Assembly: GCA_034112285.1 (NCBI GenBank)
Contig: JAWUVP010000016.1
Location: 14,403-78,402 of the forward strand
DNA: 64,000 nt
Direction: 5' to 3'
Source: Gammaproteobacteria bacterium
GTDB lineage: Bacteria > Pseudomonadota > Gammaproteobacteria > JABDGN01
Shown one piece after another: positions 6,281 through 54,323 of the stretch. Positions within the stretch are counted from its first letter, which is position 1. The number at the start of each line of letters is the position of its first letter. The notes under the pieces were generated by a model. That model saw nothing but the letters and a program-made list of their open reading frames with translations. It searched no databases and was not told the origin of the DNA. Made by a program: the position numbers and the translations under genes.

Positions 6281-7984
6281 CTAGCTGGGGTATAAATCGG
6301 GCAAATCTTTTGCTGCGGCGGATGTTGGCTGTTGCTGTAGATAGGCTTGCAATAAGTTCCAAAGCTGTGTGCCATTATCATAGTCAGCTTGTGTGTAGAG
6401 GGATTTTTCTAAGGCCGTTAACGCCTTTGTTAACGCAGGATTTGCTAACAATTCAGACAGCTCCCCTAAGCTTAAGAGGCTGTTGTTGTCCCATTTTTCT
6501 TTCGCCCAAATGAGCAACGCGGCTTGAATGGCTGCAGAGTCGTTCGCTTGACAGGCTTGGTGAATTTTCTTTAATAGTACTTTTGTGGAACTCTGGAAAG
6601 GCATAATGATTTCTTTGGTATCAACAGTGCGTGCTGGGCGACGCTTTAGATAGCCTATAAGCAATGTCAACAACCAAAGCAAAGCAAACAATGCCGTTAG
6701 GACTTTCCACAGCACATTGCCCTGGCTGCTTGAGGTCATTGCAGCCATATTGCCGGTAGAATGATTGGCAGCAATAGCGCTTGTTGTTGTCGGCATGCCT
6801 AAGCTGGGCAAAACTTTGCCTGCTTTTGCCAAAAATTGCTGTGCGGCGATTTGAGCCACTTCAGGTTTATCGGTAAGGCTATTCCACCATGGCACGCTAA
6901 TCTTGGAAAATTTCACCTGCCCAATTTGAGTGGGAATATAGGCTATTTTGTAGGTTTTTGTGGCAACCAGCTGTCCATTTTCTAATGATTCACTGGTAGT
7001 GGGCTGATCGGGATACGCATTCAAGTTGCTGGGCGTGTTGAACGTTAAATCAGGTAAATTATCGGCTGTAATGCCAACAGCGGTTAAGGTAATCGTGCGC
7101 GTGATGGGCTGCCCAGTCGTTAAGGCGGTGGCTTGAGGTGACCATTGGCTGGTTAAGGTCACTTTGCTGGCAGGTAGCCAAGCATCTGGATTCACGCCAG
7201 CAGGAATGGGTTTTACATTAATATTAATAGGGTTAGACAGCATGCGAATGGTTTTGGAGCTGGGAAAAGAAAAAAAGCTATTGTTGTTGCCACTAACGAC
7301 TTGACCTTGGAAGCCCATGCTAGGAATGATGGCTTTACCCGCTTGCTTGGGAGTCAGCATATATTGCTGCTCAATAACCTGATATTTTTTGCCCTCAATT
7401 TGAGCTGAATAATTTTGCTGCTGGCCGTAGGGGCGCAAATCAAAATTTTTGGGCTTAGCGGGGATAAGGCTGCCCGATTGAATTTCTTCCGCAAAATAGA
7501 GTTTCAAATGGTAAATGATTGGGCTGTTTATGTAGACGTTTTTATTGGTTACGCTTGCACGCATAAAGATATTGCCATGCTCGCCACCTGCGCTTGTAGC
7601 CGTTGTTTTTGCTATGTTAATAGTAATCGGCTGGGTGTGTTCGCTGCCTACGGTTAAAGCAGGAATGGTCACCGTGCCGGCATGTTTTGGCATCAGCGTG
7701 GTGACGGTTTGATAATTAGAGCTCATTTTACCGTTGTAAATAGTGGTGGAGCTGCTGGTGCTGGTGCCAAAAACCTCAAAGTCTTGATTAAGTGCTTGCA
7801 AATTAACCTGGGTATCGCTGCTGGGTTTGGTGATAGTGAGAGTTAGGCTTTCACCCACGCTCAACTGCGTGCGATCCACACTGGCACTGACGCCAGCAAA
7901 AACGGTTTGCGCACAGATTAACAGTAATGCACTTAAGAGTAGACACTGTAATTTGTGAGCTGAATGGTGGATAAAAGTAACCAT
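6281..7984 (-). CDS. batD: BatD-like oxygen-tolerance protein (signal peptide, C-terminal TM)
   Basis: 567 aa. N-terminal signal peptide and one TM segment near residue ~430. Last gene of the MoxR-DUF58-vWA-vWA-TPR-BatD operon. Confidence 0.6.
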   Translation of the reverse strand: MVTFIHHSAHKLQCLLLSALLLICAQTVFAGVSASVDRTQLSVGESLTLTITKPSSDTQVNLQALNQDFEVFGTSTSSSTTIYNGKMSSNYQTVTTLMPKHAGTVTIPALTVGSEHTQPITINIAKTTATSAGGEHGNIFMRASVTNKNVYINSPIIYHLKLYFAEEIQSGSLIPAKPKNFDLRPYGQQQNYSAQIEGKKYQVIEQQYMLTPKQAGKAIIPSMGFQGQVVSGNNNSFFSFPSSKTIRMLSNPININVKPIPAGVNPDAWLPASKVTLTSQWSPQATALTTGQPITRTITLTAVGITADNLPDLTFNTPSNLNAYPDQPTTSESLENGQLVATKTYKIAYIPTQIGQVKFSKISVPWWNSLTDKPEVAQIAAQQFLAKAGKVLPSLGMPTTTSAIAANHSTGNMAAMTSSSQGNVLWKVLTALFALLWLLTLLIGYLKRRPARTVDTKEIIMPFQSSTKVLLKKIHQACQANDSAAIQAALLIWAKEKWDNNSLLSLGELSELLANPALTKALTALEKSLYTQADYDNGTQLWNLLQAYLQQQPTSAAAKDLPDLYPS

Positions 7985-7985
7985 A

Positions 7986-8756
<771 letters not shown>

Positions 8757-8918
8757 TACGCATTCAACCTAAATAAAACATGTCATAGTGGACTGTAACA
8801 AACTTCCAAACTTTGACACAGTGTACTATGTCAAAAAACAGAAATTTGTTACAGTGCAATGTATCAAAATCTAAAAACAAACATTTTCTCTTTAATATCA
8901 ACTGGTTGCAGGCCATGA

Positions 8919-9917
8919 TCAAGCCACGTTTTCCCACCAACCTCGCCGAATCAAAGGTAAGAAAGCCAATATCGCCAGCCAAATAAACCAATGTCCATCA
9001 TCGCGCCAAACTGTTTTAGCTTGTTCGGTTTGTTTGAATTTATCGGTTAAGCGGGCTTTCACATTTTCACCCAGCAAACGACTGATGTCTTGATTGCTAT
9101 TAGTAAAAGGTACATATTGCCCCGCCCCAGTGTGGGCGAGATTTTCTAGGCCAGGCAAATCGAGTTTAGCAAATTCAATCGCGCCGCTAGCATTGGTGAT
9201 AAACCCACCACTCAGCTTTGGAATGGGGCCGCCACGCTCAGTGCCCACGCCCATGACGGTTAGGTGGTAAGCCTGCTTAGCGAGTTGCTGGGCGGCGTCT
9301 TCATCATTACTGGTCACGGGACTGCCGGTAATTAAAATAACCTGGCCGGTTTGCGCGCCGGCTTGTTGTAATAAGGTTTGTGCCGCTTGTAAGCCTGCAG
9401 CAATATTTTGCCCTTGCACGGGCACAGTGGTAGTGTTCAAACTGGGCACCATCGCCGCAATGGTGTTGCTATCGTCGGTTAACGGCGACACCACGAAAGC
9501 TTGGCTGGAAAAAACCACCATGCCGGTTTGGCCTTCTTGGGTGGCGCGCAATAAATCGAGGATTTTATATTTAGCCCGTGCAAGACGGTTCGGGGCCAAG
9601 TCGTTGGCGAGCATGGAGTTTGACAAGTCCAACACTATAACGCGCGCGTTCGCAGTGCGATAGACCGGGGTTGATAAGCGTTGCCAGCTTGGGCCAGCCA
9701 TGGCAATAATGCTGCTTAACAAGCAAAGACTAAACCAAAACCACCACCAGCGTACCCTCTGTGTGCCGGTGTTTTGCAGCACGTGAGGTTGCAGGTGTGG
9801 GTCACAATATTTTTTCCATGCTGAGGCACTGTGTTGTTGACGCAGCAATAAGCCGGCGGTTGCGATTACGGGCAGTAACAGCCAAAACCAGTCTGGGCGT
9901 ATCCAATGCAACATCAT
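8919..9917 (-). CDS. batB: BatB, vWA-domain membrane protein
   Basis: vWA domain with MIDAS motif (DLSNSM...SSQ). The start was moved to the ATG at 9917, which forms an ATGA overlap with the batA stop. The ORF-track start at 9968 overlaps batA. Confidence 0.65.
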   Translation of the reverse strand: MMLHWIRPDWFWLLLPVIATAGLLLRQQHSASAWKKYCDPHLQPHVLQNTGTQRVRWWWFWFSLCLLSSIIAMAGPSWQRLSTPVYRTANARVIVLDLSNSMLANDLAPNRLARAKYKILDLLRATQEGQTGMVVFSSQAFVVSPLTDDSNTIAAMVPSLNTTTVPVQGQNIAAGLQAAQTLLQQAGAQTGQVILITGSPVTSNDEDAAQQLAKQAYHLTVMGVGTERGGPIPKLSGGFITNASGAIEFAKLDLPGLENLAHTGAGQYVPFTNSNQDISRLLGENVKARLTDKFKQTEQAKTVWRDDGHWFIWLAILAFLPLIRRGWWENVA

Positions 9918-10918
9918 GCGCGCCACCTTAGTGCTTGTTGGCTGAGTAAAGACACTAGCCATAAACACAACAGTAAACCGAGTGGGTAAGGATACAACGG
10001 CGTGACGGGCCGTAGGGTAACTTTGTCGGCGTTAACCGGCTCGAGTTGGTTTAGTTGTTGGTACACTTGTTTTAACGCCGCACCGTTTTCGGCACGGAAA
10101 AATTTGCCGCCGGTGATTTTTGCCATTTGTTTTAAGCCGTTAATATCTAAATCGCTGGAGGGGTGCACCACTTGTGGGCCGAACATGCCATTGACGACTA
10201 AGCGGTTGGCACCTAAACCAATGGTGTAAATTTTAATGCCGAGTTGCGCGGCTTTTTTTGCGGCGGTAATCGGATCGGCGATGCCGGCGTTGTTGCCGCC
10301 ATCGGTCATTAACACCAAGGCACGATTTTGTTTGGGGTATTTCATTAAGCGTTTAATGGCTAAACCCACTGCATCACCAATGGCGGTTTGCAGGCCGGCA
10401 ATACCAACCGTGGCATCGTTTAACATTTGTTGCACGGTTTTTAAATCAAACGTGAGTGGAGTTTGCAAATAGGCGTGAGTGCCAAATAATAATAACCCAA
10501 CACGATCTCCAGCACGCTGGGCAATGAATTCGTTCGCCACTTGTTTTACCACCGCAATCCGGCTTAGGTATTGGCCGTCAATTTTCATGTCTGGGGTTTG
10601 CATGGAGCCCGACAAATCAATCGCGATCATAATGTTGCGCGCACTGCGTGGCAACTCTACCGGCTGACCTAACCATTGCAAGCCACTGCCGGCGGTGAGT
10701 AGCAAGAGCCAAATAACAGTTAGCAAACCGGTAACGCGCCAACGCCGCTGCAATGAACCGCCGGTGCTGTTAAGGCTTTGCAGGGCTTGTTGCATTTGCT
10801 TGAAGAACGGTATTTGCAACGCGCTTTGCTGGGCGCTGGTTGCCTTGGGAATGAAGTGACGAATTAGCCAGGGCAACGGTAATAAAATAAAAATCCATGG
10901 GTAGGCCATGTGTATCAT
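9914..10918 (-). CDS. batA: BatA, vWA-domain membrane protein
   Basis: N-terminal TM segments and a vWA domain with MIDAS (DLSGSM...TDG). Bat operon context. Confidence 0.7.
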   Translation of the reverse strand: MIHMAYPWIFILLPLPWLIRHFIPKATSAQQSALQIPFFKQMQQALQSLNSTGGSLQRRWRVTGLLTVIWLLLLTAGSGLQWLGQPVELPRSARNIMIAIDLSGSMQTPDMKIDGQYLSRIAVVKQVANEFIAQRAGDRVGLLLFGTHAYLQTPLTFDLKTVQQMLNDATVGIAGLQTAIGDAVGLAIKRLMKYPKQNRALVLMTDGGNNAGIADPITAAKKAAQLGIKIYTIGLGANRLVVNGMFGPQVVHPSSDLDINGLKQMAKITGGKFFRAENGAALKQVYQQLNQLEPVNADKVTLRPVTPLYPYPLGLLLCLWLVSLLSQQALRWRA

Positions 10919-11349
10919 CGTTGTTGCTCCAGCCAGGTTTCTAGGCGCTTAAGCAGTGCGGATTCATCGTTAACATTTTTTTGATACGGTGCATCGAGCA
11001 AGCTTTTTTGTTCGGCGGTGCTAAGTTGAAATGTTTTCGCGGTGCGCATTAAAAAGTTTAGCCAGGCTTGACCTTGCAAGGCAGCAATATTTTCCTGCGG
11101 ATAGGTGTATGTGGCAACGCGTTTTAGCAACACCATTGCGCTAGCGAGCGTGGTTTGCTGATGATAGGTTTGTAAAATTCGTTGGTAAAAACGGCGACGC
11201 TGCTGTTTTTTATATAAGTACCTACCGGCAAAACCTATGCCACACAGCACCAGTGCTAAAACAAGATACCAGCCCGGCGCAAGCGGCCACCAACCAATAG
11301 GGACGGGTAGATGAATATCATGTAGTTGTTTTAATAAATTTGGCGCCAT
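10915..11349 (-). CDS. DUF4381-like small membrane protein of the bat/MoxR operon
   Basis: 144 aa with one TM helix. Sits between DUF58 and BatA, as in canonical bat operons. Start and stop overlap the neighbouring genes. Confidence 0.5.
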   Translation of the reverse strand: MAPNLLKQLHDIHLPVPIGWWPLAPGWYLVLALVLCGIGFAGRYLYKKQQRRRFYQRILQTYHQQTTLASAMVLLKRVATYTYPQENIAALQGQAWLNFLMRTAKTFQLSTAEQKSLLDAPYQKNVNDESALLKRLETWLEQQR

Positions 11350-24481: not shown

Positions 24482-25894
24482 ATGACTCAAAACACGGTAA
24501 CTATAGCATCGTTCAAACGCACTCAACATGAATTGCGATTTTCCTTTGCTTGGTGTGAGCAACAATTTCCCATGCGTTATTGTTATGATACGTCGATTGA
24601 TTTTTTTCAATTGGAGAAACGCTATGGTGTAGAAACGATGCATAATATCTATTTTCACATTATCGCGTTTGAGGTGAATAAATTTGCCAGCATAAAACCA
24701 AATGTTATTGATTTTGGTGAGTTTTCACGTTTTCAAACTAAAGCCTTTGAAAATTTATGGCGCACTATTATTGTGAATGCGTGGGCGCAGTGGCGATATG
24801 AAAATAATATCATCCAATATGTGGGGCCTGAGTTTAGTGTGCCATCCGCTGCCGCCTCCACCACAAAGCCTATTAGATTACAAGACAGTGAAACAGAAAT
24901 ATTACTGTTTACTAGTAGTGGTAAAGATAGCTTGGCCTGTTTGTCTTTATTAACAGATGCAGGTGTTGTATTTGATACATTGACTTATGCCTGTAATGTT
25001 TATGGTGATATGGACCAGCAACACCGAAGCGGGGAAGCTATAGCAGTTAATGCCAATGTTGGGCAGCAACGTAAGCAGTGGATTGAAGACAGCTTCTTAA
25101 ACTCAAATATTCTAGACCACCCAAACGTTGAGACCTGTACGTTAATCGCTGCCGAGACCCCAAGTTCGATTTTTGCCAGTTTACCGTATGTGTTAATGCA
25201 CGATTATCATTATATTGCTCTCGGTCATGAACGCAGCGCCAATAGTGGCCAATTGAGATGGGATAAAACTGGCGAAGAAATCAATCATCAATGGGGCAAG
25301 TCATTCGCTGCTGAAACACTATTGAATGATTACATTCGAACGCATTTAATTAGCAACTTTAGTGTGTTTAGTTTATTACAACCTATTCATGACGTGCTGA
25401 TTTTCACGTTGATGAATAACAATCTTGCTGTAATTGAGCACAGTAATTCTTGTAACATTGATATTCAGGGTTGTGGCAGCTGTCCGAAATGTATTTATGT
25501 GGATTTAGGATTTAAAGCTTATTTACCCAAAGATGCGCCATTTCGCGAGTTCAAAACTGATCCATTTGATATTGAGCAGAATCAATTTCTTTACCGACAA
25601 TTATTGGGCTTGGAACAACATTTACCATTTGAGTGTATTGGTCAACAGGATGAAACTAATTTAGCATTTGCTTTATGTGTTGCTAAAGGCTACCAAGGCA
25701 AGGCGCTTAAACAATACCAAGCAGCACATTTAGCACCACCCGATATCGAACAATTACAAAATCGATATCTTAACGTACATACTGAACATAATATTCCACA
25801 GTTCGTTGCTGAAAATGTGATCCCATTAATGATGATAGCGGCGGAACAGGCTAAGCAAGAAATTAGCCTACAACTTGGCTGGACGCTTACTTAA
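24482..25894 (+). CDS. QueC-like / PP-loop (adenine nucleotide alpha-hydrolase) family protein with ~140-aa N-terminal extension
   Basis: Divergent PP-loop LLFTSSGKDSLACLSLL at residue ~145. C-terminal Cys cluster C..CGSCPKC, reminiscent of the QueC zinc site. The rest is unrecognised. Confidence 0.45.
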   Translation: MTQNTVTIASFKRTQHELRFSFAWCEQQFPMRYCYDTSIDFFQLEKRYGVETMHNIYFHIIAFEVNKFASIKPNVIDFGEFSRFQTKAFENLWRTIIVNAWAQWRYENNIIQYVGPEFSVPSAAASTTKPIRLQDSETEILLFTSSGKDSLACLSLLTDAGVVFDTLTYACNVYGDMDQQHRSGEAIAVNANVGQQRKQWIEDSFLNSNILDHPNVETCTLIAAETPSSIFASLPYVLMHDYHYIALGHERSANSGQLRWDKTGEEINHQWGKSFAAETLLNDYIRTHLISNFSVFSLLQPIHDVLIFTLMNNNLAVIEHSNSCNIDIQGCGSCPKCIYVDLGFKAYLPKDAPFREFKTDPFDIEQNQFLYRQLLGLEQHLPFECIGQQDETNLAFALCVAKGYQGKALKQYQAAHLAPPDIEQLQNRYLNVHTEHNIPQFVAENVIPLMMIAAEQAKQEISLQLGWTLT

Positions 25895-45268: not shown

Positions 45269-45769
45269 TTACGCGCCACTACTGCCTAAACTAATTTGTA
45301 CATCAACACCCGCGGCTAAATCTAATTTCATTAGCGAATCAACCGTTTTTTCTGTAGGGGCGACAATGTCAACCATACGTTTGTGTGTACGCAATTCATA
45401 TTGGTCACGTGCATCTTTATTTACATGTGGCGAAACCAAAATCGTAAAACGCTCTATGCGTGTTGGCAAAGGAATTGGACCAACCAATTTCGCGCCGGTA
45501 CGCTTTGCTGTGCTAACAATTTCAGCGGTTGATTTGTCAATCAAACGATGGTCAAAAGACTTAAGCTTAATACGAATGCGTTGTTTTGACATCGCTTCCG
45601 TTTTTTTGCTTGTGGCCTTTTTCGCAGCTGGCTTCTTAGCTGCTGGCTTTTTAGCTACCACTTTTTTGGCTGCTGGCTTTTTAGCCGGCGCTTTTGCAGT
45701 CACTTCAGTTGCTTTTGTCTCAACTTTTGCTTCTTCAGTATTCGTATTATCTGTTTTATCAGTTGTCAT
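45269..45769 (-). CDS. rpsJ: 30S ribosomal protein S10, apparently with a ~59-aa Lys/Ala/Pro-rich N-terminal extension (canonical S10 start would be the ATG at 45592)
   Basis: Canonical S10 ([19 protein letters not shown]...) begins at codon 60 with a weak, close SD. The long ORF is in frame. It starts at an ATG (45769) behind a strong AGGGAG SD, 10 nt after the fusA stop. Confidence 0.8.
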
Positions 45770-45779
45770 AACGTCTCCC

Positions 45780-47882
45780 TTATGCCGCGTGTTTTTTAAT
45801 TACTTCATCGGCAACACTCTTCGGAGCTTCTGAATATTTTTCAAACTCCATTGAATATGTTGCACGCCCTTGAGACATGGAACGCAAATCAGTTGCGTAA
45901 CCAAACATCTCTGAAAGAGGTACTGCTGCGTTGATAGTCTTACCAGACACGGTATCTTCCATACCTTGCACGATACCGCGACGACGATTTAAATCACCCA
46001 TCACGTCACCCATATAATCCTCTGGGGTAACCACTTCAACTTTCATCATTGGCTCAAGTAAAACCGCACCTGCATTCAACGCACCTTGCTTCAAGGCCAT
46101 TGAGCCGGCAATTTTAAAAGCCATTTCATTTGAATCGACATCATGATATGAACCATCATAAAGTGTCGCTTTCACATCAACTAATGGGAAACCAGCTAAA
46201 ACGCCATTTTCCATTTGTTCTTTAACACCCTTATCAACGGCGCCGATGTATTCGCGTGGAACCGCTCCACCCACAATTTCATTAACAAACTCATACCCAT
46301 CACCAGCAACTTGTGGCTCTAGTTTTATCCAAACATGACCGTATTGACCACGACCACCTGATTGGCGTACAAATTTACCTTCTTGCTCAACCGTTTTACG
46401 AATCGTTTCACGGTAAGCAACTTGTGGTTTACCTACATTCGCTTCAACGTTAAATTCACGTCTCATGCGGTCTACAATAATTTCCAAATGAAGCTCACCC
46501 ATGCCGCCAATAATGGTCTGGCCTGACTCTTCATCGGTGCGAACAGTGAATGATGGATCTTCTTGCGCTAACTTACCTAACGCAACACCCATTTTTTCTT
46601 GGTCAGCCTTAGTTTTAGGCTCAACTGCAACGAAGATAACTGGCTCTGGGAAATCCATACGCTCTAAAGTGATAATATCACTTAAGGCACATAAGGTTTC
46701 ACCGGTTGTGACATCTTTAAGTCCAACGGCAGCAGCGATATCACCAGCGCGAACCTCTTTAATTTCTTCACGAGTGTTTGAATGCATCTGTAAGATACGA
46801 CCAACGCGCTCTTTGCGATGTTTAACTGGGTTATAAATAGTGTCACCAGAAGACAGTATACCCGAGTAAACCCGGAAGAATGTCAGTGTACCCACGAACG
46901 GGTCAGTAGCAATTTTAAAGGCTAATGCCGAGAAAGGCTCATCGTCACTCGCTTTACGATCTGATTCTGTTTCATCTTTATCGTCCAACACGCCTTTAAT
47001 TGGCGGCACGTCGGTTGGCGCTGGCATATAATCAATCATACCATCTAACATGGCCTGCACACCTTTGTTTTTAAAGGCTGTACCACAGAAAACAGGAACC
47101 ACCTCATTGGCCAATGTGCGCGCACGAATACCTTTGCGAATTTCTTCTTCAGAAAGTTTTTCACCTTCTAAATATTTTTCCATTAATTCTTCGGTAGCTT
47201 CTGCAGCGGCTTCAATTAAGTTTTCACGCCATTTTTCTGCATCAGCTTGCATGTCAGCAGGGATATCTGCATAAGTATGTTTCATACCCATGTTTTCTTC
47301 TTCCCAATAGATTGCCTTCATTTTCAAAAGGTCAATCACACCTTTGAAATCTTTTTCAGCACCGATAGCTAATTGCACAGGCACAGGATTTGCACCTAAA
47401 CGCTCAACAATGGTTTCAACAACGCGCAAGAAATTTGCGCCATCGCGGTCCATTTTGTTGACGAAGGCCATACGTGGCACGCCATATTTGTTGGCTTGAC
47501 GCCATACTGTTTCAGATTGCGGCTCAACACCACTTACAGCACAAAACACAGCAACAGCACCATCTAATACACGTAATGAACGCTCTACTTCAATAGTAAA
47601 GTCAACGTGACCAGGGGTGTCAATAATGTTGATACGGTGATTTTTGTATTGCTCATCCATACCACTCCAGAAACAAGTCGTTGCAGCAGAGGTAATAGTA
47701 ATACCACGCTCTTGCTCTTGCTCCATCCAGTCCATAGTGGCGGCGCCATCATGCACTTCACCAATTTTATGTGATACACCAGTATAGTAAAGAATACGCT
47801 CTGTCGTCGTGGTTTTACCGGCATCAATATGCGCCATGATACCAACGTTACGATATTCTTGAATGGGGGTTTTACGGGCCAT
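45780..47882 (-). CDS. fusA: elongation factor G
   Basis: 700 aa, G-domain motifs [21 protein letters not shown]. Confidence 0.95.
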
Positions 47883-48763: not shown

Positions 48764-49283
48764 ATCTAGTTACTTCTCCCAAACTGGTTAGGCCTTACTT
48801 AAAATACAAAAACCCCCAACCATATCAACATGATAGAGTAGGGATTTAAAACTTATGTCGCCCAATTGGCGACTTTCTCTCATTTAGGGTCCCGGGCTTT
48901 TCGGCCCTACCTGCGGCCCTAATGAGGCTATTCAGGGACACGCAATATACACCACTTAACCTGTATTGCCAAGGGAAAATGTATAATTATTTTCTACGCC
49001 GGCATTGCCAAGACATTCCATGTCTAATTGAGTCGATGCTGCTCCTTAATATAAAATGTGTCTAACCGGAGCTTTAGGGAGGCAAAGCCACGGCCTAAAA
49101 CACCCATAGTTGTATTTCGTCTGTTTTTTACCTCAAACCACCTCTAAAACGCTCAATATTAATACAGTCCGTTAATATTTACTTAAGGTTGCTCCGATAC
49201 AATCAGCCAAGCCCAGGGAATACCCCTTCATTAACAGGTAAAAGCCATTTTGGCGGAAGAACCTAATTACAGTGAGTAGAACA

Positions 49284-52200
49284 ATGAAAATATTGCGCAA
49301 AGCCATTTTAACCAGCATCGGTATCTTACCTTTTTTCGCTCCCCTATCTGCCTTTGCTGCAGATGACGCAACCGATACGAAAGATTTATTGAGCAGTAGC
49401 GAGCTTGACTGGCGCAAGTCGCGCTTTAGTCTGGTTGCTGAATCTGGCTCACGCACCCTTGGTACGGTGGATGCCTTCGTGCCTTTCATGGGCAACGAAG
49501 ATTTCATGATTTATGCGGATTTAATGGCAAAACTGGGCTCAGGTGCCAGCAATGCTAGCGGCAACACCTTTGAAGGCAACCTCGGCTTAGGCTTTCGACG
49601 TGTGAACGATAAAGAAACAGCTATCTATGGTATGTACGCCTTTTACGATAGTCTACGTTCCGTTAACGACAACACCTTTCAACAGGTCACTGTCGGTGCT
49701 GAACGCTTAGGCTTAACCTGGGATTTTCGGGCCAATGTCTACTTGCCCTTGGGTGAAAAATCCCTGACCAAAGATGTCTATAAAGGTGGCAAAGTGGTGA
49801 TTGATGCACACAACTTAATTGAGTACATCAAATTAAACACTGAAACCATTACCACTGGTTACGATGTTGAAGTCGGCCGCACCCTGGGCACCAATAAATT
49901 GCGCGGCTACATCGGCGCTTATTCCTTTGGCAAAGATTTATCGGGCCCACGTATGCGCTTGGAATATCAACTGTCCTCTCACCTAACCTTAACGGGTAGT
50001 TTGCAACACGACAAAGATCGCGGCACCCAATATTTGTTAGGCGCGCGCATGAGTGTCGGCGGCAGTCAGGCAGAAAATTCTAACAGCATTTACAATCGCA
50101 TGACCGCCCCTGTGGTACGTGATGTTGATATTGTGACGAAAGTCACCGAAACAGATATGACTAAGGTCGAGCTAGATCGCTTCTACATGGTAGATGTCGA
50201 CAACCAAGCCAACGGCGATGGCACCTTAGAAAACCCGTTTAACTCTATCAATGACGCCATTAATGCTGCGCCGGAAAACGCCATTATTTTTGTCGTGGGA
50301 AAAAATGGCGAGCCGCAACAATTAGGCGGCGATACAAGCTTAAAAGAAGGCCAACTGTTGTGGGGTGGCTATGAACCACTCTATTGGGATTTCGACCAAG
50401 GCTTACCGCGCTTTGTTCCCAATGACGGCGACACCTTATTAATTCAATCAGGCAGTGGCGTGCGCCAGACCTTGAGTGGGGGAATTACCGCCAATGGTAA
50501 CAACATTGGCCTTTACCACTTTGATTTACAGGGCAACGGGCAGAGCGCCGATGGCGTTTTTATTAATGATCACAACGGGGTGGTTGTTAATGACGTCAAC
50601 ATTAGTGGTTTTGATACCGGCATTCAAATTTTAGGAAGCCATACGGATGTTAGCCTGAGCAATATTAAACTCGACCAAAATGGCACCGGTATACTGATTG
50701 AAGGGGGTCAAACGACCTATAGCAACCTCAGCATTAGCAATAGCGAGAACTATGGCATTCAAATGAGTGGTGGTTCTTCGCTGAGCGGCGACCATGTCGA
50801 AATCAGCAACAGTGGCCTAGATGGCATGCACATTGATAATGCAACCTTTAGTAGCAACAGCTTAACGATTAACAACAGCGAAGACAACGGCGTTTATCAA
50901 CAAGGTGGTAGCTTTAATGTGTTCGGAGCCGGTGCCGTTAGCAACAGTGGCAAAGATGGTATGCACTTTGAAAATGTAAGCTTTAGCGCCGGTAGTTTAA
51001 TGATTAGTGATAGCGATGGTTATGGCCTTTTCCAAACCGGGGGCAGCTTTGAGGTGCTGGGCAAAACCTCTGTCAGCGACAGCAAACAAGATGGCATCTA
51101 CTTTGAAAATCTTGATGCACGTATTGGTAGCATGAGTATCAGCAATAGTGGTGGCAAGGGTCTTTATCAAAACGGCGGTAGTTTAGTGGCCAGTGGTGAC
51201 TTGATAGCCAATAACAGCCAAGCTGATGGCATTTATTTACAAAATGTCACCGCGCTGGTGAAAAATATTAGCAGCACTGAAGCTGGCATGAATGGTTTAG
51301 TGCTTAACAACAGTGAGTTAAATGTTACGGGCTCGCTCGTCGCAGACAATAATGAAGCTTCAGGCATTGTTAATCAAGCGAGTAAATTGCGCATTGATGG
51401 GAAAAGTAGCAGCAGTGAGAATGGTGAATTCGGCTACTATGGCGAACACGGCAGCCTAACCGGTAGTGGTAGCTTGGAGACCTCTGCTAACAATTCAAGC
51501 GGATTTTTTGCCAGCGACAGCACAATTGAGCTGGGTGGTCTTACCAGCAACGCGAATGGCCAAGACGGCGTGATTTTACAAGACACTCAAGCAACATTTG
51601 GCTCTCTCACCGCACAAGACAACACAGCCGGAAAGGGTTTAACCATAAGTGGCAACGACAAACAAGTCAGCATTGGCATGGCCGACATTCAACGCAATAC
51701 CGTCGGCATAGTGCAGCATGATGCTGCGCTAACCATTGATAGCGGTAATGTTAGCAACAATACCCAAGAAGGGATTGATAGTTATGGCGCATCATTAACC
51801 ATTAACGATACTAACTTTGCAAACAATGGAACTGACGGCATTAAACTTAACAACGGCAGTCAGTTAACACTCGACGGCGGTAACTTTACTGATAATGGCC
51901 ACCACGGTTTAAACATGACCGACAACAATATCGCCAATATTAGCAATGTAAGCTTTACGCACAATGGTGGCATAACCGAAGATAAAGATGGCAATTCTAT
52001 TGTGCCCGATGCACAAAGCATCGATGATCTTTATAGCGCCATTTCTGTTTCGGGCACCCTAAATGCTAACGGCCTTATTGTGAACAACAATGCGGCTGGT
52101 ATTGAGTTAGTTAACGGTAGCTTAAACATCAACCAAGCTGTTGACAACAATACCAGTACCATTAACGACAATCATGGCTATGGTATTTGGGCGCATCAAA

Positions 52201-53249
52201 AGCAAGACGGCACAACACGAAACATCACTATTTCTAATACGCAGATCACCGGCAATACATTCGTCAATCCTGATGTGAAATTATTGGGTCATGGCATTTA
52301 TGCGCAAGATATCAATGAAATGCATTTAACCGATGTCAGTATGAATAACAATGAAGGCATTGGCTTATCGGTCGAAAGTGGCCGTGTAGCGCTAGATTCT
52401 GTTCAGCTTAACCAAAATAACACCGCGGGTTTATTGGTTGATGGCGGGGATGTCAGCCTTACAGACTCTGAAAGTATTGGCAATGGTAACGGGATAGAAT
52501 TTACGAACGGCAAATTAACCATTACCAACAGCTTCATTACAGACAATAAACATTTAGGTGTTTTATTAAAAAGTAACGCTGATGGTACTACGCGTGAATT
52601 AACCATGCGCGACTCTATTATCGAAGGCACAAAAAATAACAACTCTTCCATCAATTTAGGTCAAGGTGAAGGCCATGGCCTTGAGGTTGATGATAGCAAC
52701 TCAACAGTGACATTATTCAACACCCAAATTATTAATAATGAAGGCCATGGTGTTTATTTGAAAGCCGGTACGTTTACCATGGATGGCGATGATAAAAATT
52801 CATCACGCCTGGGTGAAAATGGTTTAGGTGGAATCTATGCTCTATTTGATAGCACGGCTCCAGAAAAATCTGTGCAACAAATCCACATTAACAACACAAC
52901 CATAGATTTAAATGTAAAGCGCACCGATGTGGAAGGTACCACCGCGGTGAAAATAAATTATCTTGATAAAGTCATGGACAAGACGGTCTTCATGGATAAT
53001 GTCGACATTATTCACAACAACGCTGCCGGCATTCAGTTCGTGTGGACTGATAACAATGCAAACATATATGAGGATAGCACGCCTACCATCACGCGATTAA
53101 CCATGAACAATAATGATGATTCAAATGGAAAATCGAAGCTTATAGACCCGATGATCGATCATGCAACCCTGAACCTTGGCCAAGAAGCAGAGGAATATAT
53201 CATTCGAGGCCAGGGCCGCGAGTTCTTTTGGGAAAAACGTGAACCCTAG
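49284..53249 (+). CDS. large secreted/outer-membrane protein: signal peptide + N-terminal amphipathic-strand beta-barrel-like domain (~aa 40-265) + >1000-aa parallel beta-helix repeat passenger (putative inverse-autotransporter-like adhesin)
   Basis: Signal peptide MKILRKAILTSIGILPFFAPLSAFA. N-terminal strands alternate hydrophobic and polar residues (LGLTWDFRANVYLPLG, LRGYIGAYSFG, RMRLEYQLSSHLTLTG). The rest is 22/44-aa periodic N/S/G/D-rich coils. No C-terminal barrel. Confidence 0.6.
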   Translation: MKILRKAILTSIGILPFFAPLSAFAADDATDTKDLLSSSELDWRKSRFSLVAESGSRTLGTVDAFVPFMGNEDFMIYADLMAKLGSGASNASGNTFEGNLGLGFRRVNDKETAIYGMYAFYDSLRSVNDNTFQQVTVGAERLGLTWDFRANVYLPLGEKSLTKDVYKGGKVVIDAHNLIEYIKLNTETITTGYDVEVGRTLGTNKLRGYIGAYSFGKDLSGPRMRLEYQLSSHLTLTGSLQHDKDRGTQYLLGARMSVGGSQAENSNSIYNRMTAPVVRDVDIVTKVTETDMTKVELDRFYMVDVDNQANGDGTLENPFNSINDAINAAPENAIIFVVGKNGEPQQLGGDTSLKEGQLLWGGYEPLYWDFDQGLPRFVPNDGDTLLIQSGSGVRQTLSGGITANGNNIGLYHFDLQGNGQSADGVFINDHNGVVVNDVNISGFDTGIQILGSHTDVSLSNIKLDQNGTGILIEGGQTTYSNLSISNSENYGIQMSGGSSLSGDHVEISNSGLDGMHIDNATFSSNSLTINNSEDNGVYQQGGSFNVFGAGAVSNSGKDGMHFENVSFSAGSLMISDSDGYGLFQTGGSFEVLGKTSVSDSKQDGIYFENLDARIGSMSISNSGGKGLYQNGGSLVASGDLIANNSQADGIYLQNVTALVKNISSTEAGMNGLVLNNSELNVTGSLVADNNEASGIVNQASKLRIDGKSSSSENGEFGYYGEHGSLTGSGSLETSANNSSGFFASDSTIELGGLTSNANGQDGVILQDTQATFGSLTAQDNTAGKGLTISGNDKQVSIGMADIQRNTVGIVQHDAALTIDSGNVSNNTQEGIDSYGASLTINDTNFANNGTDGIKLNNGSQLTLDGGNFTDNGHHGLNMTDNNIANISNVSFTHNGGITEDKDGNSIVPDAQSIDDLYSAISVSGTLNANGLIVNNNAAGIELVNGSLNINQAVDNNTSTINDNHGYGIWAHQKQDGTTRNITISNTQITGNTFVNPDVKLLGHGIYAQDINEMHLTDVSMNNNEGIGLSVESGRVALDSVQLNQNNTAGLLVDGGDVSLTDSESIGNGNGIEFTNGKLTITNSFITDNKHLGVLLKSNADGTTRELTMRDSIIEGTKNNNSSINLGQGEGHGLEVDDSNSTVTLFNTQIINNEGHGVYLKAGTFTMDGDDKNSSRLGENGLGGIYALFDSTAPEKSVQQIHINNTTIDLNVKRTDVEGTTAVKINYLDKVMDKTVFMDNVDIIHNNAAGIQFVWTDNNANIYEDSTPTITRLTMNNNDDSNGKSKLIDPMIDHATLNLGQEAEEYIIRGQGREFFWEKREP
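50740..51420 (+). repeat. tandem ~132-bp (44-45 aa) coding repeats inside the beta-helix protein
   Basis: Four or more consecutive units of the form S.N[SN]...G[IL]...GGS...G...[IV]S.S..DG[IM][HY][FI][ED]N. Confidence 0.6.
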
Positions 53250-53354
53250 GTTCTGACAAAGCTGAACCTAGGCTTTATGAAATAAATTAAAATTAACAAT
53301 GAGCAGAAGAAATTTAATGAATTGCCAAAACCAAATAAAAATAGGAAACCACCC

Positions 53355-54110
53355 ATGAAAAAATTTAAAATAATTTCACCCCTTTTAATCCTTCTTTCCC
53401 TAGTCGGATTTTCAGCTTACGCGGCCAATGCCGTTGTTGGAACCTGCGATATTGGCAGTGGGACGAATAGCGGATTTTGGTTTTTTCAAAATTTACCTGA
53501 TAACCATAATTTAAATATTAAATACGAAGCTTTAGACGTAGCTGGTGGCGTATATAACAATAGCCAGCTGCCTCCTGGCCTACATTGCTTGCCCTTACCC
53601 AAGCCTGATGCAACATTAAGAATGTGCTTAACATATGATGGAGAGGGGTGTTCAGACTTAAGCACATCTGAGCAATCAAGTTCGGTACAATCAGCGAGTT
53701 GTTTTGAAGATGCATGGGATAATCAAGCAAGACCAGGATGCTACTGGGCACCCAATAGACCGAGGCCAAGCCCTCAAGGTACTCCCGGCATCATAAAAGC
53801 TTCCTGCGGAACTGATCAAATGGGATTTTGGTTTAACCAACATAATTTTGATGAACATCGGAAGAATATGAACCTTTATTATTTAGTGGCTACAGGCTCG
53901 TATTATAATAATAGCCAGCTTCCCGCAGGCTTACATTGTCTTCCTCTACCGGCCCAAGGAGCGAGTATAAGAGTTTGTCAGTCACAACCAGGAGGGCCAA
54001 GAATTAACCCGCTTTGCTTTACTAGCACTGTTGATCTCGATAACGCAAAAGCCGTGACATGCAACAGTAAGTATAGGACTTGTGGTTGGTCTTCAGAAAA
54101 GCCGACATAA
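53355..54110 (+). CDS. secreted cysteine-rich protein, internally duplicated (paralog 1)
   Basis: AGGAAA SD, then ATG, then signal peptide MKKFKIISPLLILLSLVGFSAYA. Two half-repeats, each with GFWF.Q...YNNSQLP.GLHCLP.P...IR.C. About 14 Cys. Confidence 0.65.
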   Translation: MKKFKIISPLLILLSLVGFSAYAANAVVGTCDIGSGTNSGFWFFQNLPDNHNLNIKYEALDVAGGVYNNSQLPPGLHCLPLPKPDATLRMCLTYDGEGCSDLSTSEQSSSVQSASCFEDAWDNQARPGCYWAPNRPRPSPQGTPGIIKASCGTDQMGFWFNQHNFDEHRKNMNLYYLVATGSYYNNSQLPAGLHCLPLPAQGASIRVCQSQPGGPRINPLCFTSTVDLDNAKAVTCNSKYRTCGWSSEKPT

Positions 54111-54323
54111 AAATGGGGCGTCAAGACGGAGCAATCAACAAGCAAGCCTTGCCGAAAAATAAGTAGAGCTTAAAAATAATAAATAATCGAAATTTGATTT
54201 GGCGAAAACTGCGCTATTCCATACTTTTGGGGTCATTTTCGCTAAAGTATATCAACGATTTGTAGACACATGGGCGGCATAATATTGCCCCTTTGCAATA
54301 AAATTAACAATAGGACAACACAC

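Follow-up and report, generated by a model that had tools for sequence, protein, structure and literature searches.

How might a protein that opens with a putative outer-membrane barrel and continues into a very long beta-helix reach the cell surface? A gene for 1321 amino acids in the 64,000-nucleotide stretch of DNA analysed here (the window) raises this question. An earlier note on this DNA had read from it an N-terminal barrel followed by a C-terminal passenger, the topology of type Ve autotransporters, and we obtained the same order of domains: signal peptide (residues 1-25), barrel (47-259) and passenger (286-1321). We hold with high confidence that the gene product belongs to the type Ve (inverse) autotransporters and carries as its passenger a single long right-handed parallel beta-helix in place of a chain of Ig-like domains. 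We document here the identities, order and predicted folds of its domains, their pattern of conservation and the absence of a partner transporter from the neighbouring genes surveyed. The features are collected in Table 1.

Table 1. Features of the predicted inverse autotransporter, with positions in the window.
Feature	Residues	Position	Strand	Basis or remark
Complete gene, predicted inverse autotransporter of 1321 aa	1-1321	49284..53249	+	ORF list and translation; ATG 49284, stop 53247-53249
Sec signal peptide MKILRKAILTSIGILPFFAPLSAFA, cleavage after AFA (AFA25), then ADD	1-25	49284..49358	+	Read by eye from the sequence; N-terminus conserved in homologues
N-terminal beta-barrel	~47-259	49422..50060	+	Predicted model with 14 strand segments
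Insertion of ~30 residues relative to canonical inverse autotransporters	~160-189	49761..49850	+	Length of Pfam match; strand elements at model positions 135-149 and 152-164
Short helical turn (IYNR) and linker RMTAPVVRDVDIVT	260-285	50061..50138	+	Model helix 244-247, then extended segment
Barrel-proximal passenger: two post-linker strands, N-terminal cap (…GDGTLENPFNSINDAINAAPENAIIFV…), first coils	286-520	50139..50843	+	More conserved than the rest of the passenger
Variable middle of the beta-helix	~521-920	50844..52043	+	Identity 6-23%, alignment occupancy 0.27-0.87; model pLDDT mostly >95
Distal conserved block	~921-1160	52044..52763	+	Identity 26-38%, occupancy ~0.95; strongest Beta_helix match (Pfam) at 980-1119
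C-terminal end of the passenger: last coils and poorly predicted tail	1161-1321	52764..53246	+	Low conservation; pLDDT <50 over the last ~30 residues

The gene and its N-terminal barrel

The ORF list and the translation confirmed the reading frame given by the earlier note. Its longest version opens at GTG 49272, upstream of ATG 49284, and we took the ATG as the start because the homologues all begin MK(I/L)LRKA. An identical protein (P0001) is encoded on JGI contig Ga0455761_049538. As had been claimed, the N-terminus reads as a typical Sec signal, with a positive n-region, a hydrophobic core and an AxA site but without a lipobox Cys. The 1321-residue protein is acidic (D+E 12.0%, K+R 6.0%) and contains no cysteine; its close family has 22 cysteines in 38,121 residues, and the other ORFs of the window contain 0.84%. 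Judged by composition, cysteine depletion and acidity would fit a chain that is kept unfolded before export. The GC content of the gene (0.41-0.47, against ~0.43 around it) was not anomalous, so a recent foreign origin is unsupported by composition. An Rfam scan of the window returned no matches, and promoter and terminator scans gave counts near those of shuffled sequence.

Both sequence and predicted fold support the assignment of the N-terminal domain to the inverse-autotransporter barrels. When residues 1-342 were searched alone, the Pfam family PF11924 (IAT_beta) matched with 46.4 bits (cut-off 22.3, E = 5.2e-12). The profile search that had been proposed as a check therefore succeeded on the fragment but not on the whole: IAT_beta was reported neither in the Pfam scan of the full-length protein nor in the precomputed database annotation of the identical protein, and an NCBIfam scan of the full-length protein had no matches. 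A family profile built from 28 sequences matched, among PDB sequences, the barrel structures of invasin (9.5e-9) and intimin (8.3e-5); a single-sequence phmmer search of the N-terminus against the same sequences found no match. Foldseek placed 4e1t and 4e1s first for the barrel model, which can be superposed on the intimin and invasin barrels at an identity to these structures of only ~15-16%. As read from the model, the barrel is closed and 12-stranded: we took its 14 modelled strand segments for 12 strands, of which beta7 and beta8 form a long, kinked hairpin. No soluble beta-sandwich, the fold that would have spoken against a barrel, was predicted. The transmembrane barrel read by the earlier note is thus supported. 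Its description of a strict alternation of hydrophobic and polar residues holds in part: about 8 of the 14 predicted strand segments show a clear alternation, so that it is not strict throughout, and the patterns quoted there are present at 142-156 (LGLTWDFRANVYLPL), 208-215 (GYIGAYSF) and 223-230 (RMRLEYQL), within or overlapping predicted strands.

The IAT_beta match spans 151 residues of the protein for 123 profile positions (53-175 of 279). In comparison with intimin and invasin, this leaves ~30 additional residues in loop 4, and their two extra predicted strand segments suggest that this loop is drawn out into a longer hairpin on the outer side.

Linker and beta-helix passenger

Beyond the barrel, the elements of the model follow one another as a helix (244-247), an extended conserved linker and two strands (260-271 and 275-279, model positions). 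This modelled order matches that described for intimin, in which an alpha-turn is followed by a linker and then a beta-strand (PMC13078405). No other short motif of the clade is conserved as well as the linker, which is almost invariant across distant relatives; R272, R279, D280 and D282 do not vary in alignment A1, and R279 keeps its place in all of 67 distant relatives. By analogy with intimin, we propose that the linker RMTAPVVRDVDIVT runs through the barrel lumen. For intimin a conserved arginine, R434, has been described at the start of the linker; here an invariant arginine, R272, stands at the start of the linker. The linker motif of this protein, RDxDIVT, sets it apart from intimin and invasin. 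A profile of the C-terminal half of the barrel and the linker had only chance matches in the PDB, neither intimin nor invasin among them, so homology of the linker to that of intimin is not supported by sequence. Another arginine of intimin, R288 in strand 6, has been described as completely conserved in inverse autotransporters (PMC13078405). Counted back from the GxE motif, and with the gap moved to the preceding loop, its position falls on an invariant glutamine, Q134, which probably takes its place here; we infer this equivalence, since HMMER placed the gap differently.

We found that the passenger, about 1000 residues in coils of 22-23, is predicted to form a single right-handed parallel beta-helix, in agreement with the earlier note. 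Pfam Beta_helix (PF13229), the second profile proposed there, matched in six stretches with 96.9 bits (cut-off 25.9, E = 1.2e-27), and NosD matched residues 419-536 (1.3e-7). The autocorrelation of hydrophobic and of G/N positions peaks at 22, 23 and 45 residues. A model of residues 290-1321 consists throughout of short beta strands (pLDDT 89.8), with strand elements up to about residue 1275, and every Foldseek match of this model was a right-handed beta-helix protein, pertactin and HxuA included. Among PDB sequences the passenger had nothing beyond one marginal match to a phage receptor-binding protein, so no function was assigned to it on these grounds. The absence of a C-terminal barrel, also claimed earlier, was borne out: Pfam and NCBIfam scans of the protein and its fragments found none, the C-terminus belongs to no Pfam family besides Beta_helix, and the modelled last ~30 residues form a low-confidence tail and not a barrel.

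Conservation falls from the barrel to the proximal passenger and from there to the middle, with a mean identity of 40-45% for residues 281-400 and of 6-12% for the middle. The consensus of the cap is kept in distant members of the clade, and the number of coils in the variable middle differs among homologues. No tandem repeats were found in the gene at the DNA level. The coils are therefore old and diverged, and a recent repeat expansion was rejected as their source. The distal conserved block is a candidate for the functional tip.

Proposed export route and role of the rod

Topology, export mechanism, folding direction and function are drawn here from the intimin/invasin paradigm. On this model, Sec would take the precursor across the inner membrane, the signal peptide would be removed after Ala25, and BAM would assemble residues ~47-259 in the outer membrane as the 12-stranded barrel. 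The chain would exit the last strand on the periplasmic side, make a short helical turn and pass back through the lumen as the linker, giving a hairpin of the intimin type. The conserved barrel-proximal cap (~286-420) would then be first at the surface and fold there, and coil-by-coil folding from N to C would draw out the other ~900 residues. The outcome would be a rod, some 20 nm long and built from about 43 coils, that the barrel holds covalently; its variable middle would serve as a spacer, and its working end would be the conserved distal block (~921-1160).

The full width of the periplasm is close to ~20 nm. This bears on the idea that the barrel is a membrane anchor only and that the beta-helix stays untranslocated in the periplasm. 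NosD and AlgG are both periplasmic beta-helix proteins, and each is represented here, the former by its Pfam match (1.3e-7) and the latter among the fold matches. However, a folded rod of ~20 nm would take up nearly all of that width, the barrel belongs specifically to the intimin/invasin type and is followed by a predicted turn and linker in the arrangement that would thread the chain outward, the linker is the short motif that the clade conserves best, and the lack of cysteine and the acidity suit a chain that is unfolded until export. We consider such a periplasmic location very improbable.

Long beta-helix exoproteins are typical of type Va and type Vb secretion (PMC6555100), and HxuA and pertactin are among the fold matches, so the protein could also be the exoprotein half of a two-partner (type Vb) pair or a misread classical (type Va) autotransporter. 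Yet the N-terminal domain is itself predicted as a closed barrel, and the only Pfam or NCBIfam matches of the protein and its fragments were IAT_beta, Beta_helix and NosD; hence neither a TPS domain nor a C-terminal autotransporter barrel was seen. Nor was a TpsB-like partner, which the earlier note had weighed against its own reading, found nearby: positions 1-40000 hold 33 ORFs that reach 150 aa, and neither the 30 of these that were examined nor the called genes flanking the locus encode a TpsB, POTRA, ShlB or Omp85 protein. Of the readings discussed here, we regard this one as the most remote.

Two cysteine-rich secreted proteins are encoded downstream. We rejected them as conserved substrates or partners of the ZirS/ZirU kind, because tblastn found no homologue of them near any of ~80 related loci, because each contains 12 cysteines and because the barrel would, by analogy, already be filled by its own linker.

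Under the preferred type Ve reading, the most likely role of the rod, as judged from known systems, would be adhesion or glycan binding. The same secretion architecture could instead display a carbohydrate-active enzyme (a polysaccharide lyase, glycosidase or epimerase) at the surface. PbH1/Beta_helix and NosD-type repeats are typical of pectate and alginate lyases, epimerases and phage depolymerases; the Foldseek matches include PL6 alginate lyases, GH87 glucanases, AlgG/AlgE epimerases and capsule depolymerases; the distal block is conserved across homologues; and some members of the clade match Pect-lyase_RHGA_epim and DUF1565. These enzyme matches are all weak (E 3e-4 or worse, TM <=0.39) and reflect the shared fold, pertactin and HxuA match about as well, and structural similarity is no stronger to enzymes than to adhesins, being weak to both. 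Moreover, the protein matched no CAZy-type or NCBIfam family, no catalytic motif was seen in it, and ~43 uniform coils with a middle of variable length are more stalk-like. An enzymatic passenger is thus unlikely in our view, though far from implausible.

Known systems, relatives and meaning

In intimin (EaeA) and invasin (InvA), the type Ve proteins of family PF11924 (structures 4e1s, 4e1t and 5g26), the passenger combines Big_1/Big_2 domains with a C-terminal lectin-like tip, often with a periplasmic LysM domain, and reviews still speak of Ig-like or lectin-like passengers for inverse autotransporters (PMC6555100). The passenger here is instead a continuous beta-helix. None of Big_1, Big_2, Intimin_C and LysM matched the 1321-residue protein at E up to 1, and with only ~20 residues before the barrel there is no periplasmic LysM.

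With regard to type Va autotransporters (pertactin, Hbp, AIDA-I), the order of domains is inverted, and no PF03797 barrel or autochaperone match was found in the protein. A type Va passenger folds from C to N, starting at a C-terminal autochaperone, whereas emergence and folding here would, by analogy with intimin, run from N to C. The TpsA exoproteins of type Vb (FHA, HxuA, EtpA) share the long right-handed beta-helix, and they are thought to emerge N-terminus first and to fold from an N-terminal nucleating domain, much as proposed here. In contrast to type Vb, in which the transporter is a 16-stranded Omp85 protein with POTRA domains, the transporter here is a fused, 12-stranded inverse-autotransporter barrel; the passenger has no TPS-domain match and would stay attached.

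The earlier note had considered a beta-helix passenger unusual. It is atypical beside intimin and invasin, but the design was noted in 2016 and is common in genome and metagenome data, in a clade that is large and taxonomically broad. A pectin-lyase fold (IPR011050) at the C-terminus of invasin_beta proteins was described by Heinz et al. (2016, Genome Biol Evol 8:1690; section 10 and Fig. 6), in a single paragraph of sequence analysis that gives no structure, mechanism or experiment (PMC4943183). Their group has the same architecture, an inverse-autotransporter barrel followed by a beta-helix, and also lies among the more divergent barrels, outside the tight intimin/invasin/FdeC cluster (PMC4943183). 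We found no experimental study of any member of this design in the literature. Relatives of the barrel amount to 3213 cluster representatives. In two samples of these relatives, IAT_beta was matched in 51 of 60 and 53 of 63, and Beta_helix also in about half; Big_1, Big_2, Intimin_C and LysM were matched in none of the 123 scanned. The closest relatives all come from uncultured Gammaproteobacteria, and one of 48% identity occurs in the same sample, so the organism may have several such proteins.

The protein is probably a major surface structure of the uncultured gammaproteobacterium that encodes it. As neither Pfam nor the stored annotation picks out the barrel when the protein is taken at full length, genes of this kind are labelled only as beta-helix repeat proteins, and their anchoring in the outer membrane is overlooked. 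A characterised member would test whether an intimin-type barrel exports a beta-helix of 1000 residues, and whether folding proceeds from N to C. More tentatively, and with limited confidence, we suggest that the clade may be a natural system in which a beta-helix leaves an intimin-type barrel and folds at the surface from N to C, opposite to the direction taken in classical autotransporters. The conserved cap (~286-420) would then be an 'inverse autochaperone' that nucleates folding, and the glutamine (Gln134) in place of the conserved arginine, the RDxDIVT linker and the long loop-4 hairpin would have co-evolved with the type of passenger. If this is true, the export of beta-helices was invented independently in types Va, Vb and Ve, and the clade would offer a clean system in which to ask whether the direction of vectorial folding matters.

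The autotransporter gene and its surroundings

The 1321-aa reading frame claimed in the earlier note was borne out by the ORF list and its translation, and GC content across the gene is unremarkable. The longest frame begins at a GTG four codons upstream of the ATG, which we took as the start because all homologues begin MK(I/L)LRKA. The signal peptide, also claimed, is a standard Sec signal (residues 1-25, MKILRKAILTSIGILPFFAPLSAFA) with an AxA cleavage site and without a lipobox. The gene and two small ORFs all lie on the + strand. They are flanked by genes that are all on the - strand: rpoC-rpoB at one end, and at the other rpsL-rpsG-fusA-rpsJ with the ribosomal protein genes that come next. 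EF-G is 87-89% identical to metagenomic sequences and ~81% identical to that of named Gammaproteobacteria (Sedimenticola, Thiohalobacter, Acidihalobacter and a Legionellales MAG), and the window's ribosomal proteins have no database relatives above 90%; the host is therefore an uncultured gammaproteobacterium.

Features of the gene, its product and the window; identities are regional means to the 1321-aa query over 28 close homologues
Feature	Position	Strand	Remarks
Autotransporter ORF	ATG 49284, stop 53247-53249	+	1321 aa
Barrel	residues 41-280		identity 60-75%, down to 48% across the loop-4 insertion
Proximal passenger	residues 281-400		identity 40-45%
Middle of passenger	residues 520-800		identity 6-12%, many length differences
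Distal block	residues 921-1160		identity 26-38%, alignment occupancy nearly full
Tandem Cys-rich ORFs	53355-54110 and 54324-55070	+	directly downstream of the autotransporter gene
rpoC-rpsL gap	48764-55174		variable insertion spot in the lineage
Palindromic hairpin	48857-48873		GTCGCCCAATTGGCGAC, perfect, 6 bp, GC-rich; rpsL-autotransporter intergenic region; terminator-like score on both strands
fusA-rpsJ	45269-47882	-	rpsJ directly after fusA, no tuf between; tuf at that position in both related contigs compared (L086 12128-13318, L087 12135-13325)
BatD, TPR, two VWA, DUF58, MoxR-AAA cluster	6281-13214	-	Bat-like aerotolerance operon layout (Pfam sweep)
Three ORFs (384, 433, 470 aa)	14340-16935 (-) and 24482-25894 (+)		no Pfam match at E up to 1e-5

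In this window the rpoC-rpsL gap is taken up by the autotransporter and both Cys-rich ORFs, all on the strand opposite to the flanks. In relatives whose EF-G is 87-88% identical (gap regions L086 1378-9109 and L087 3796-9109), it carries IS1595 and Y1 transposases with ArsP in one case, and Vut_1, an MFS transporter and an M32 peptidase in the other. The Cys-rich ORFs are paralogous (63% identical, ~250 aa), each with a signal peptide and 12 cysteines. By eye, each seems internally duplicated, with GSGTNSGFWFFQ…YNNSQLPxGLHCLPLP occurring twice; self-BLAST gave no internal match. Neither ORF matched Pfam, NCBIfam or PDB, and no homologues were found near the other related loci compared. The rpsL-autotransporter intergenic region matched no Rfam family.

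A predicted inverse-autotransporter barrel and its linker

The alternating hydrophobic and polar segments from which a barrel had been proposed are present at residues 142-156, 208-215 and 223-230, within or overlapping predicted beta strands, but alternation is not strict everywhere, being clear in ~8 of 14 predicted strand segments. When residues 1-342 were scanned alone, IAT_beta (PF11924) matched residues 51-201 (profile positions 53-175 of 279) at E 5.2e-12; its score was 46.4 bits, above the gathering score of 22.3. With the full-length protein, hmmscan did not report this profile even at E up to 1, an annotation pitfall; the identical database protein likewise has no barrel domain in its stored Pfam annotation. 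A profile of 28 family members matched the crystal-structure sequences of the invasin (4e1t, 9.5e-9) and intimin (4e1s, 8.3e-5) barrels. The AlphaFold2 model of residues 26-420 was confident (mean pLDDT 88.4, pTM 0.73), and in the PDB Foldseek placed the barrels of invasin and intimin in its first three ranks (E 2e-13 to 3e-12, TM 0.69-0.73). Profile and structure prediction, both proposed as checks, returned an inverse-autotransporter barrel.

Between residues 47 and 259 the model contains 14 strand segments, which we infer to be 12 barrel strands with strands 7 and 8 prolonged into a long kinked hairpin. This hairpin corresponds to ~30 residues (about 160-189) that are inserted when compared with the Pfam profile, positioned where intimin carries its long loop 4, part of a small sheet at the barrel mouth (PMC13078405); it would lie on the outer side.

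After the last barrel strand, the model continues with a short helix at 269-272 (IYNR), then an extended segment and finally strands at 285-296 and 300-304, the same order of helical turn, linker and terminal strand as in intimin (PMC13078405). The linker stretch holds the family's most conserved short motif, RMTAPVVRDVDIVT. The alignment of 28 sequences shows no variation at R272, R279, D280 or D282, and R279 stays invariant across 67 sequences from many phyla. A profile of the linker region gave no match reaching intimin or invasin. Counted back from the GxE motif in the family-profile alignment, intimin R288 would correspond to Q134, a Gln that does not vary in this family. D280 and D282 of the linker may occupy corresponding places, a pattern suggestive of possible co-variation.

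The beta-helix passenger

N, G, S and D abound in the ~1000 residues that follow. The claimed 22-aa coils were recovered by autocorrelation of hydrophobic and G/N positions, which peaks at 22, 23 and 45 residues, and the suggested Beta_helix profile matched at 1.2e-27 in the full-length Pfam scan, where only NosD was listed besides; Beta_helix covers six stretches of the passenger and NosD four. DNA-level tandem repeats were not found in the gene. The AlphaFold2 model of residues 290-1321 (mean pLDDT 89.8, pTM 0.79) is made up almost wholly of short strands that follow one another regularly, with only the last ~30 residues poorly predicted. With 22.5 residues per coil, a length of about 960 residues corresponds to ~43 coils; a beta-helix rises about 4.8 Å per coil, and the calculated rod is therefore ~20 nm long. 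The protein contains no cysteines and is acidic (D+E 12.0%, K+R 6.0%); among the 38,121 residues of its close family there are 22 Cys, compared with 0.84% in the window's other ORFs. Low Cys content and acidity are typical of autotransporter passengers, which must pass the periplasm unfolded.

Every Foldseek match of the passenger model was a right-handed parallel beta-helix protein. PL6 alginate lyases, GH87 glucanases, capsule depolymerases and AlgG/AlgE epimerases were among them, as were a phage receptor-binding protein, tailspikes, pertactin and HxuA. All were weak (best E 2.9e-6, TM at most 0.39), and such model-based matches identify the fold, not the function, on which sequence searches added nothing. 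We favour a role as adhesin or stalk; an enzyme is possible.

Placement and distribution of the family

The IAT_beta match, the Foldseek barrels, the Beta_helix match and the beta-helix model together support the proposed inverse-autotransporter architecture with a beta-helix passenger. The alternative of two-partner secretion would call for a TpsB-like partner nearby; none was found, as POTRA, ShlB and Omp85 were absent from 30 of the 33 ORFs that lie at 1-40000 and are 150 aa or longer, and from the called genes flanking the locus. By analogy, the protein would resemble two-partner secretion exoproteins in directionality, its N-terminus emerging first, and classical autotransporters in covalent attachment and barrel size.

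A whole-protein search returned 51 homologues, most with PF11924 and PF13229 in their stored annotation. When one genome per species was scanned, 79 loci emerged; Gammaproteobacteria MAGs hold the closest, and others are in Thalassospira, Arcobacteraceae, Burkholderiales, Cyanobacteria, Planctomycetes, Chlamydiae, Verrucomicrobia and Leptospira. Residues 26-330, used as query in an exhaustive search, gave 3213 cluster representatives with E values up to 1e-3, of which 1442 had E up to 1e-10. IAT_beta was found in 53 of 63 genome-scan ORFs and 51 of 60 distant representatives, Beta_helix in 27 and 30, NosD in 13 and 15, and DUF1565 in 7 of the distant set; Ig-like Big domains occurred in none of either set. 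The family is multi-copy. The 48%-identical relative P0002, on a different contig of the same metagenome (L082/L083 8001-12077), has GDSL lipases, an OMP and the T6SS gene SciN as neighbours. The homologues P0012 and P0022 are adjacent paralogues on another contig (L085 7020-13273), in the vicinity of a VgrG-like gene and of proteins with RING and WD40 domains.

The passenger had been called unusual, and it is indeed unlike the Ig-like or lectin-like type Ve passengers of reviews (PMC6555100), but Heinz et al. 2016 had reported divergent invasin_beta proteins that form a defined group and end in a pectin-lyase fold (PMC4943183, section 10, Fig. 6), and had compared them with pertactin-type autotransporters. 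The 1321-aa protein is therefore a member of the inverse-autotransporter superfamily, outside the intimin/invasin subfamily, and its class is already described, yet uncharacterised. Our full-text literature search turned up neither a further paper on the architecture nor any experimental work on one of its members. What is new is limited to a new, divergent member of this class, in which the clade-specific features of barrel and linker may be adaptations to a beta-helix cargo.
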